From assembly GCA_019358935.1 (NCBI GenBank), contig JAHHIK010000057.1:1-54783 (forward strand): a stretch of DNA of 54,783 nt. Reading direction: 5' to 3'. This DNA comes from Tolypothrix carrinoi HA7290-LM1 (GTDB taxonomy: Bacteria; Cyanobacteriota; Cyanobacteriia; Cyanobacteriales; Nostocaceae). The position numbers were made by a program, and so were the translations under genes. The notes under the pieces are model-generated. The model worked only from the letters and a program-made list of their open reading frames with translations, searched no databases and was not told the DNA's origin. Shown here piece by piece: positions 3,435 to 5,149 of this stretch; positions within the stretch are counted from its first letter, which is position 1, and each line of letters begins with the position of its first letter.

Positions 3435-4022
3435 ATGAGTACAGATTCGCCTATATCTTCTCAAAAGCCAGAAACTACAGCGGGGACACGCTTAAGAAAT
3501 TTTGCGATCGCAATGGTAGCGATCGCCCTGAGTGTTGCCTTATTTTTAGGATTGCGAACTCAAACACCCGAAGCAAGTCTTGCAAAGTTAGATGAAGGGT
3601 CTACACCATTAGAATTAGCTTTGACAAACGGCAAGCCAACGCTGATGGAGTTTTATGCAGATTGGTGTACTGTTTGCCAAAAAATGGCACCAGATATGCA
3701 ACAGTTCGAGACGCAATATGCTGACAAAGTTAATTTTGTCATGCTGAATGTAGATAATACCAAATGGCTGCCGGAGATGTTGAAGTATCGGGTGGATGGA
3801 ATTCCCCATTTTGTTTTTTTGGGTAAAGATGGGGAAACAATCGCCCAGGCGATCGGCGATCTACCGCGTACAATTATGGGAAGTAATTTAGAAGCCTTGG
3901 CTACTGGTTCATCTTTGCCTTATGCTCAAGCAAGCGGACAAGTTTCCAAATTTTCCGCACCAGTTAAACCAACAAGTAGTAAAGACGATCCTCGCCTCCA
4001 CAGTAGCCAAGTTGTAAATTAG
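3435..4022 (+). CDS. txlA: Membrane-anchored thioredoxin, TxlA/HCF164 family
   Basis: N-terminal TM helix, EFYADWCTVC active site, YRVDGIPHFVF, C-terminal DPR motif. Confidence 0.9.
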   Translation: MSTDSPISSQKPETTAGTRLRNFAIAMVAIALSVALFLGLRTQTPEASLAKLDEGSTPLELALTNGKPTLMEFYADWCTVCQKMAPDMQQFETQYADKVNFVMLNVDNTKWLPEMLKYRVDGIPHFVFLGKDGETIAQAIGDLPRTIMGSNLEALATGSSLPYAQASGQVSKFSAPVKPTSSKDDPRLHSSQVVN

Positions 4023-4100
4023 CAGAAATTCTTAATTCCTAAGTTTGGTTTTCATACCATTTCTCTATGAGCCTGCATTTAATTTAGGTTCGACGAAGAA

Positions 4101-4137
4101 TAGCTAGGCGATCGCAGCGGGGGCAATCGCCTAGCTA
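4101..4137. terminator. Inverted repeat between convergent txlA and csp genes
   Basis: TAGCTAGGCGAT...ATCGCCTAGCTA stem. Confidence 0.55.
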
Positions 4138-4186
4138 TTAAGGCTGATACTTACTGGTGTCGCGTACTTGTAGTGGTAGTTGTGGG

Positions 4187-4507
4187 TTAGATTGGTGTGA
4201 CATTAACGGCGGCCGGTCCTTTCTGACCGTCTTGAATCTCAAACTCGACTGATTGACCTTCCGCAAGGGTCTTAAAGCCATTGCCTTGTATGGCAGAAAA
4301 ATGTACGAAAACGTCTTTACTCCCATCTGCTGGTGTTATGAAGCCAAACCCTTTCGCTTCATTAAACCACTTTACTTGACCTTTCATCTTGGTGGCTACG
4401 GCGTATGATGGTGCGCTGATACCTATAACAAGCACAGCAACCAGAGCCACTACAATTATTAATCGACGTACTAAGCGAGACATTTTTTGCTGAAATAGTA
4501 CACTCAT
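4187..4507 (-). CDS. csp: Cold-shock domain protein (CspC-like) with N-terminal Sec-type signal peptide
   Basis: [16 protein letters not shown] (RNP1) and VFVHF (RNP2). A 36-aa leader has basic N-region, hydrophobic core and SYA site. AAAGGA RBS precedes ATG 4507. Confidence 0.9.
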
Positions 4508-4630
4508 TACAAATTCCTTTGTCTTGTAAGGATTGATCTAGCGTCATATTAGCATGACCTTCTGCCCTCTGCCTTCGCCATCACCAAATGCCAAGACCCT
4601 TAATTTAGCCCACGCAGGTAAGCTCTGTAC

Positions 4631-5149
4631 GTGATTGCAATGGTAGCGATCGCCCTGAGTGTTGCCTTATTTTTAGGATTGCGAACTCAAACGTCAGAAG
4701 CAACTCTTGTGAAGTTAGATGAAGCGTCTACACCATTAGAATTAGCTTTGACGAATGGCAAGCCAACGCTGATGGAGTTTTATGCTGATTGGTGTACTGT
4801 TTGTCAGAAAATGGCACCAGATATGCAACAGTTGGAGACGCAATATGCTGACAAAGTTAATTTTGTCATGCTGAATGTAGATAATACCAAATGGCTGCCG
4901 GAGATGTTGAAGTATCGGGTGGATGGAATTCCCCATTTTGTTTTTTTGGGTAAAGATGGGGAAACAATCGCCCAGGCGATCGGCGATCTACCGCGTACAA
5001 TTATGGGAAGTAATTTAGAAGCCTTGGTTACTGGTTCATCTTTGCCTTATGCTCAAGCAAGCGGACAAGTTTCCAAATTTTCTGCACCAGTCGCACCAAC
5101 AAGTAGTAAAGACGATCCTCGGCTTCATAGTAGCCAAGTTGTAAATTAA
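4631..5149 (+). CDS. txlA: Second, 5'-truncated copy of txlA (possibly pseudogene)
   Basis: Near-identical to 3504-4022, lacks the first ~23 codons, has no evident RBS, keeps WCTVC. Confidence 0.75.
   Translation: MIAMVAIALSVALFLGLRTQTSEATLVKLDEASTPLELALTNGKPTLMEFYADWCTVCQKMAPDMQQLETQYADKVNFVMLNVDNTKWLPEMLKYRVDGIPHFVFLGKDGETIAQAIGDLPRTIMGSNLEALVTGSSLPYAQASGQVSKFSAPVAPTSSKDDPRLHSSQVVN

Follow-up and report, generated by a model that had tools for sequence, protein, structure and literature searches.

The csp gene and its product

The DNA analysed here (the window) is a stretch of 54,783 nucleotides from Tolypothrix carrinoi HA7290-LM1, a member of the Nostocaceae (assembly GCA_019358935.1, contig JAHHIK010000057.1), and the subject of this report is a small gene on its minus strand, csp, which encodes a cold-shock domain (CSD) of the CspC/CspE type that this cyanobacterium probably sends out of the cytoplasm. 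The frame (4187..4507, minus strand) is unbroken and comprises 106 codons plus a stop codon. Its product is made up of a predicted Sec-type signal peptide (codons 1-36; 4400..4507) and a predicted mature protein (codons 37-106; 4190..4399) of 70 residues, 7.5 kDa and an isoelectric point of 6.75. In the 7.96-Mb genome to which the window belongs, this is the sole CSD that was found.

The domain proper (residues 41-105; 4193-4387) was identified with Pfam PF00313 at an E value of 2.8e-33, scoring 114 bits against a cut-off of 27 and covering profile positions 1-65 of 66. Both nucleic-acid-binding motifs, KGFGFI and VFVHF, which we take to be those named RNP1 and RNP2, are unaltered in the translation, and the aromatic and basic residues of both are complete. 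Against NCBIfam the protein scored 156 for the CspC model NF008190 (cut-off 137), and the other two models above cut-off, NF007062 and NF049933, gave 135.1 against 133 and 128.8 against 120. An AlphaFold2 model computed with 11 homologs as input has a helix at residues 4-29, a loop at 30-40, and a five-stranded barrel at 41-105 (strands 41-49, 54-59, 66-69, 86-94 and 97-105), with block values of the predicted local distance difference test of 74-90 over the domain.

A Shine-Dalgarno-like AAAGGA (4515..4520, minus strand) lies 7 nt upstream of the leader ATG (4505-4507), and nothing resembling it was read upstream of the internal Met41. The preliminary description of this DNA, which had reported an intact frame with a complete CSD and a ribosome-binding site placed before the leader and not before the internal Met, was thus accurate on both counts. 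The block GGA(A/G)TTTGT(A/C)ATG around the start codon is kept in the DNA of three related genomes (G214, G196 and G010), and a longer block at 4508..4575 (minus strand), homologous among the Nostocaceae copies and including a TAATAT at 4546-4551, is presumed to hold the promoter and 5′ untranslated region; the promoter is inferred from this conservation only. The Rfam model of the cspA thermoregulator matched 4189-4526 (minus strand) below threshold, at 58.7 bits against a gathering score of 78. Because that model spans coding region, the match probably reflects coding similarity and no thermosensor.

The leader

Residues 1-36 are predicted to be a Sec-type signal peptide. The n-region is 15 residues long with a net charge of +4, the uncharged core has 17 residues (mean Kyte-Doolittle hydropathy 3.8 over 12 of them), and the c-region ends in P-S-Y-A, with Pro at -4, Ser at -3 and Ala at -1, which places the predicted cut between Ala36 and Val37. 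The preliminary description would have been undermined by a leader that its homologs lacked. What was found by script is that the same three-part build recurs in all 11 aligned proteins, with n-region charges of +1 to +4, uncharged runs of 14-18 residues and a c-region of the form x-x-A followed by A. Ala36 is invariant among the 11, and Pro33 and Ala at position 37 occur in at least 90%. Insertions and deletions in leader and linker are all multiples of three in the alignments; examples are the 16-22 residues added to the linker of P0002 and P0004 and the two-codon gap of G010 and G337. Five intact DNA copies show no frameshift, and their leaders have ratios of nonsynonymous to synonymous divergence (dN/dS) of 0.3-0.9, which fits selection on the hydrophobic character of a leader whose exact sequence is freer. 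Other classes of export signal were also considered; there is no Cys in residues 1-44, so the leader is not a lipoprotein signal, and it has no Gly-Gly end of the double-glycine kind.

A start at Met41 would yield a CspC-like RNA chaperone of the usual cytoplasmic kind and make the open frame before it a 5′ leader that arose by chance. Met41 does stand immediately before the domain, several National Center for Biotechnology Information (NCBI) annotations begin late (P0123, P0124, P0106 and P0008), and a decayed copy in G171, with a TAG in its leader, could give the short form only. The Shine-Dalgarno-like motif is on the side of the leader ATG, however, and the frame and its hydrophobic pattern survive many substitutions and in-frame indels. 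Four relatives (G196, G010, G337 and G712) have no Met at all between leader and CSD; no leaderless product is therefore available to them and the leader start is required. An internal start, which the preliminary description had itself named as a possible undoing, is in our judgment highly improbable. Relatives are named "CspE antiterminator" by NCBI and several of the records start after the leader, so that the signal is hidden in the annotation.

The leader might also be an uncleaved signal anchor, in which case the CSD would stay tethered to the cytoplasmic membrane on its periplasmic side or to the thylakoid membrane on its lumenal side. In favour of this, the uncharged run is both long and, as given above, very hydrophobic, the modelled 26-residue helix could span a membrane, and the 16-22 extra linker residues that follow the leader in G214 and G196 resemble a tether. 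A plain anchor, however, has no need of the P-x-x-A c-region followed by A, with its invariant Ala at -1 and small residue at -3, which a signal peptidase site does need and which is kept in 11/11. We regard an anchor as distinctly unlikely.

Export of an already folded CSD by the twin-arginine (Tat) pathway would be signalled by the Arg14-Arg15 pair, which is followed by hydrophobic residues in the window protein and has counterparts before the core in six of the 11 aligned leaders; the fast folding of CSDs would also suit a pathway for folded cargo. The pair is nevertheless missing from the other five (P0002, P0007, P0121, P0122 and P0026), the c-region has no basic residue, and the hydrophobicity of the core is, by a rule that we assume to apply here, well above what Tat signals usually show. 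A Tat route accordingly seems very unlikely.

A search with leader residues 1-42 alone recovered only the query and P0002, because leaders vary too much in sequence to be caught by a word index. Elsewhere in the same genome, on contig C130, a 48-codon open reading frame (ORF) (L157:1486-1632) has an N-terminus weakly like the csp leader (E 0.012) and an end S-P-S-Y-A, which makes it a candidate for a further small exported peptide. On that contig a C39 domain was matched at a distance of about 5.4 kb.

Relatives and distribution

Full-length relatives were recovered in a whole-protein search, namely P0002 (128 aa), P0004 (122 aa; Nostoc sp. 'Peltigera membranacea cyanobiont' 232), P0135 (116 aa; Nostoc sp.), the P0007 cluster (98 aa; 23 members, some in Anabaena and Aphanizomenon bins) and P0026. 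Six-frame searches of genomes added G010 and G337 within the family and G712 in another cyanobacterial family. The carriers thus include lichen cyanobionts as well as planktonic Anabaena and Aphanizomenon.

In a sample of 389 species genomes of the family, the query protein was matched in 14 at E <= 1e-12, the window's own genome among them. The other 13 fall into four groups: four have an intact Sec-type leader (G010, G337, G214 and G196), two have a decayed leader or gene (G171 and G075), four, all of genus g66, have a double-glycine leader (G255, G197, G218 and G257), and three are leaderless or doubtful, being a 635-nt contig end, one frame that is rich in Gly and differs in composition, and another kind of cold-shock protein (CSP), which has no leader. 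An export leader is therefore present, or was formerly present, in 10/13. Of the decayed copies, that of G171 (L101 / L120) has a TAG inside the leader, leaving a short form with a start within the c-region, and that of G075 (L111) has internal stops in the gene. Across a sample of the class, a canonical CSD (E <= 1e-15) was found in 22/401 genomes, again including the window's; beyond the latter there was one clear signal-peptide form (G712), and the rest were read as leaderless. These two samples agree with the statement in the preliminary description that most cyanobacteria are without CSPs.

Outside the cyanobacteria, a hydrophobic leader was present in none of the 17 loci checked; N-terminal matches in enterobacterial and Gemmatimonadota loci proved to be read-through of upstream non-coding DNA and were rejected. 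A profile search of 1.84 billion representatives returned mostly multi-CSD proteins among the 150 matches listed. Three of these, all from metagenomes (P0154, P0162 and P0273), have a signal-peptide-like N-terminus followed by two CSDs, and one of the clusters includes a Deltaproteobacteria bin. Exported CSDs may consequently not be confined to cyanobacteria.

Type and origin of the cold-shock domain

The CSD is 97% identical to CspC of Pantoea sp. B9002 over residues 40-106 (67 residues), 59 of 60 core residues being equal; with the CspC-type protein of Citrobacter 58/60 are equal. At the DNA level, csp is only 74-77% identical to the sampled Enterobacterales and 79.2% identical to E. coli cspE over 202 nt. 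Between csp and its Pantoea counterpart, synonymous change has reached saturation (42.8 differences on 39.2 sites), with a dN of 0.023. Within the Nostocaceae, the CSD has a dN/dS of 0.06 against the nearest copy (G214) and 0.13 against G171, and it is under strong purifying selection. On these points the preliminary description, which had noted a near-identity to enterobacterial CspC with many synonymous codon differences and had proposed purifying selection, is well supported by the scores, identities and trees reported here.

Two quick maximum-likelihood trees over 67 alignment columns placed 13 export-type CSDs of the Nostocaceae within the CspC/CspE set (Shimodaira-Hasegawa-like approximate likelihood ratio support 84-85), which at a support of 85 comprises 40 rows. 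The other rows of this set are Enterobacterales and one Orbales row (Gilliamella), and none of the other cyanobacterial CSPs is inside it. Rows were drawn from the sequences that matched the query best, which tilts the sampling to near relatives, and with 67 columns most forks are unsettled and the count of acquisitions is not fixed. The approximately unbiased test rejected neither a single clade for all 15 export-type CSDs of the Nostocaceae (p 0.21) nor a clade for the 11 of Sec type (p 0.26).

The high amino acid identity together with the saturated synonymous sites speaks for an old transfer under constraint, and not for contamination. A transfer of a cspC/cspE-type sequence from Enterobacterales to Nostocaceae, strongly constrained since, is supported by the comparisons. 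Enterobacterial plasmids, on which cspE-like genes occur, are a possible vehicle; among plasmid and phage records, none covers at least 80% of the inserted csp cassette described below, and only the CSD part matches, at no more than 79% identity.

Combinations of leader and domain

Not all proteins with the window's leader have its domain. G010, G337 and P0173 share the leader, the upstream block and a Thr-rich tail, and their CSD, only 57-60% identical to that of the window, is placed outside the CspC set. P0235 combines this leader and tail with a further CSD, whose identity to a cyanobacterial CSP without a leader is 76%. The Thr-rich C-terminal tail (P0173 and P0235; L108 and L106) corresponds to the window's 3′ untranslated bases right after the stop codon. 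One leader and tail on CSDs of such different types suggests an exchange of the domain inside a conserved frame.

Synonymous divergence between csp and its G010 counterpart is 6 on 26.5 sites in the leader and 18.8 on 38.8 sites in the CSD (Fisher p 0.04), which would fit such an exchange of the CSD segment. As lower divergence in the leader than in the CSD is also the tendency in closer pairs, the contrast is weak evidence. Two readings of the mismatch between leader and CSD remain, namely an exchange of CSDs in a kept frame and a fast divergence of some lineages.

Relatives with a double-glycine leader

Four Nostoc-genus genomes (genus g66) have genes in which a CspC-type CSD is directly preceded by a leader of a different kind (L114:10021-10311, L115:10270-10548, L116:10145-10453 and L117:9994-10284). 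This leader is acidic, 28 residues long and ends in Gly-Gly; we take it to fit the double-glycine consensus, and no library model matched it. The CSD of the G255 copy scored 144 bits on NF008190 (cut-off 137). A second kind of leader on a CspC-type CSD adds support to an extracytoplasmic role. Each g66 genome has 9-13 matches to the C39 peptidase, and no C39 transporter was found within 10 kb on either side of the double-glycine genes or on the same contig.

The g66 leaders are conserved (dN 0.03-0.08, dS 0.12-0.44, dN/dS 0.1-0.25), whereas the changes in the CSD are mostly nonsynonymous. Between G197 and G257 there are no synonymous and 18 nonsynonymous differences in 60 codons of the CSD (binomial p 0.012; leader versus core, Fisher p 0.001); for G255 and G257 the figures are 3.5 and 20.5, which is not significant (p 0.35). 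At key positions some copies have L or Y in place of W and N or D in place of His, and the G197 copy is truncated at its C-terminus. The pattern could reflect either diversifying selection on a secreted product or decay.

It is mainly from these relatives that another explanation draws, according to which the exported CSD is an antagonistic or signalling protein directed at other cells, bacteriocin-like or perceived by a host, and has no outside role with nucleic acids. A conserved leader joined to a fast-changing cargo, as in G197 and G257, is typical of leader-guided secreted peptides, and in the double-glycine relatives key aromatic and His residues have been lost. CSD-like toxic effectors do exist, and the sub-threshold NCBIfam matches include the retron Se72 effector (54.5 bits against 82). 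The copy in the window is the opposite case, with its dN/dS of 0.06 and every binding residue kept. Moreover, the other double-glycine pair tested gave no significant excess, the double-glycine genes have neither an immunity gene nor a transporter within 10 kb, and the truncation of G197 offers simple decay as an alternative. For the window gene, action on other cells is thus unlikely, and we retain export of a CSD of the CspC/CspE type as the preferred reading.

Two further features were seen at these loci. The G218 copy adjoins a fragment of a phage integrase (L116:10918-11334). At L114:2400-5100 the ORF list has six short minus-strand ORFs in which one peptide motif recurs, suggesting a regular array of repeats in the DNA, and two ORFs that by eye are cas-like adjoin at 365-2022.

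The locus and its assembly

The csp gene lies in an inserted cassette of about 610 bp (4023..4630). The same site is empty in the congener G009, where a single thioredoxin-like gene is contiguous with both flanks. In the window, a full TxlA-like copy of this gene (3435..4022, plus strand; Pfam Thioredoxin 4e-17) precedes the cassette, and a second copy, 5′-truncated and without the first 23 codons (4631..5149, plus strand; Pfam Thioredoxin 1.2e-17), follows it; the latter is 95.4% identical to 3504-4022 of the former and is also without a promoter of its own. The 24 differences between the copies of this 519-bp repeat are grouped at both ends, with copy 1 matching G009 at more positions in the 5′ group (10 versus 5) and copy 2 in the 3′ group (7 versus 1). 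Such a mosaic is as would be expected from a single crossover with a circular donor fragment.

Between csp and the convergent thioredoxin-like gene is a hairpin with a 17-bp stem (4096..4140), presumably a bidirectional terminator. It has a folding energy of -28.3 kcal/mol (z -5.8; none of 200 shuffles as good) and, having no T run, is missed by a terminator scan. In G214 and G196 the homologous csp adjoins ABC-transporter genes, and its similarity to the window extends for only about 70 nt before the gene and 55 nt after it, so that the moving unit is taken to be the monocistronic csp gene.

The preliminary description had allowed that reads might reveal a chimeric or contaminant assembly, and an enterobacterial sequence joined to cyanobacterial DNA would account for the very high amino acid identity; the gene also lies between two near-identical repeats, where assemblers can err. 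A Logan contig of 741 nt from run X1, the probable source sample, spans 3926-4666 and both junctions with no differences. Its depth is 494, the flanks having 510-527 and the collapsed identical part of the repeat about 1300-1500. A bridging contig at the depth of the flanks means that the insertion is no assembly artefact. Enterobacterial csp DNA in our sample does not exceed 77% identity, and the same leader-CSD gene is present in other, independently assembled Nostocaceae genomes, so that we attach practically no probability to a chimera. Runs X2 and X4 contributed conserved parts of relatives only; the contig from X4, a lichen metagenome, is 237 nt long (4306-4547) and, at a depth of 2.2, too thin.

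A membrane protein of 230 residues that joins a CSD to DUF1294 was noted at L013:1465-2157, with like loci in 8/10 congeners. With that protein as query, no CSD-DUF1294 protein was found in the window's genome, the sole match being csp.

Proposed route and function

On the evidence of the leader and its conservation, the following route is proposed. Translation would start at the leader ATG or at Met9, which is aligned with the start of the shorter forms. The very hydrophobic core would target the emerging polypeptide to the Sec translocon, probably while it is being translated and by way of the signal recognition particle, a route that we propose because the core is so hydrophobic and the folding of a CSD so fast. 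Signal peptidase I would then cut after P-S-Y-A (Ala36), freeing the 70-residue CSD into the periplasm, or possibly into the thylakoid lumen or the medium. As for the origin of the gene, a transferred cspC/cspE-type sequence may have been joined to a leader that is also found on other CSD types. Of the suggestion in the preliminary description that an acquired CSP has been redirected for export, the enterobacterial type of the domain and the conserved, signal-peptide-like leader both stand, while the history appears more complex than one acquisition and one fusion. Its ideas of nucleic-acid binding outside the cell and of mimicry toward a host are speculative.

Several observations weigh against export as proposed here. 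CSDs fold very fast, which makes them awkward for post-translational Sec export, and the Arg-Arg pair in 6/11 leaves some probability to the Tat route. Since the G171 and G075 copies have decayed, the export form is dispensable. The neighbours of csp differ among genomes, and none hints at a function. A scan for consensus promoters from 3950 to 4750 returned no sites, and a metatranscriptome (run X19) matched the thioredoxin-like repeats only and csp not at all, being uninformative on expression. Finally, with the CSDs of G010 and G337 outside the CspC set, a single acquisition followed by a single fusion is too simple an account. We nevertheless hold that export of the csp product is the probable reading.

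What the exported domain does is less certain. That the mature protein acts on single-stranded DNA or RNA beyond the cytoplasm, by binding or melting it, has, in our view, slightly less than an even chance of being correct; it is favoured because the whole binding face has been kept under the strong purifying selection described above. One possible target would be extracellular nucleic acid in the sheath or periplasm, where the protein might perhaps aid secreted nucleases.

More tentatively, and with rather more doubt than confidence, we suggest that csp may belong to an undescribed class of exported CSDs, present in the Nostocaceae and in one or more further cyanobacterial families, that share an export frame open to reuse. 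In this class at least three CSD types (CspC-like, KGYG, and one 76% identical to a leaderless cyanobacterial CSP) would share one Sec-type leader and Thr-rich tail, and the CspC-like type would separately have been joined to a double-glycine leader, with an excess of amino acid changes there. If this is true, an extracellular task for a CSD in these organisms, be it the handling of single-stranded nucleic acids or action on other cells, has been recruited repeatedly.

CSPs are textbook cytoplasmic nucleic-acid chaperones, and their presence in bacterial secretomes is usually ascribed to lysis or to unknown routes. A full-text search of the literature, with supplements and subscription journals outside its scope, yielded, among the papers listed, none that describes CSPs with signal peptides or double-glycine leaders; passages in PMC11890772 deal with CsbD-family stress proteins and a SignalP citation and are unrelated. 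What emerges is a conserved family whose predicted export signals are of two kinds, unrelated to each other, in a phylum mostly without CSPs, and with it a testable case for the deliberate export of a nucleic-acid-binding domain. Such export would bear on the roles of extracellular DNA and RNA in cyanobacterial sheaths, mats and symbioses, on the passage of a very fast-folding domain through Sec, and on the new use of a transferred housekeeping gene.

Comparison with known systems

CspC and CspE are cytoplasmic RNA chaperones and transcription antiterminators of the Enterobacterales. The window domain is essentially equal to theirs, being above cut-off on all three NCBIfam models and having intact RNP motifs. 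The window protein differs in its 36-residue leader, its length (106 residues versus about 69), its cyanobacterial host and its predicted extracytoplasmic location, and its gene is without the long 5′ untranslated region of the cspA type. Among CSPs that are perceived by plants, the known elicitors (csp22 / csp15) are without a signal peptide, and the window gene also has relatives in planktonic Anabaena and Aphanizomenon; the RNP1 region, which we understand to bear the csp22 / csp15 epitope, is present in the window protein.

The CSD-DUF1294 membrane proteins, common in the same genus, likewise join a CSD to membrane-spanning segments, but in these the CSD is N-terminal and weak (E 1e-9) and the hydrophobic part comes after it. 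With the double-glycine peptides of C39 transporters (class II bacteriocins, microcins and many cyanobacterial peptides) the likeness is confined to the four g66 relatives and the C39 domains in those genomes. No transporter adjoins the g66 genes, and the window gene has a Sec-type leader. That leader has a parallel in the Sec-dependent proteins of Gram-negative bacteria that are processed by signal peptidase I, with which it shares the positive charge of the n-region, a core that is hydrophobic and a c-region with Pro at -4 and a small residue at both -3 and -1. It differs from these in the length of the n-region (15 residues) and in its cargo, an otherwise cytoplasmic nucleic-acid chaperone domain.

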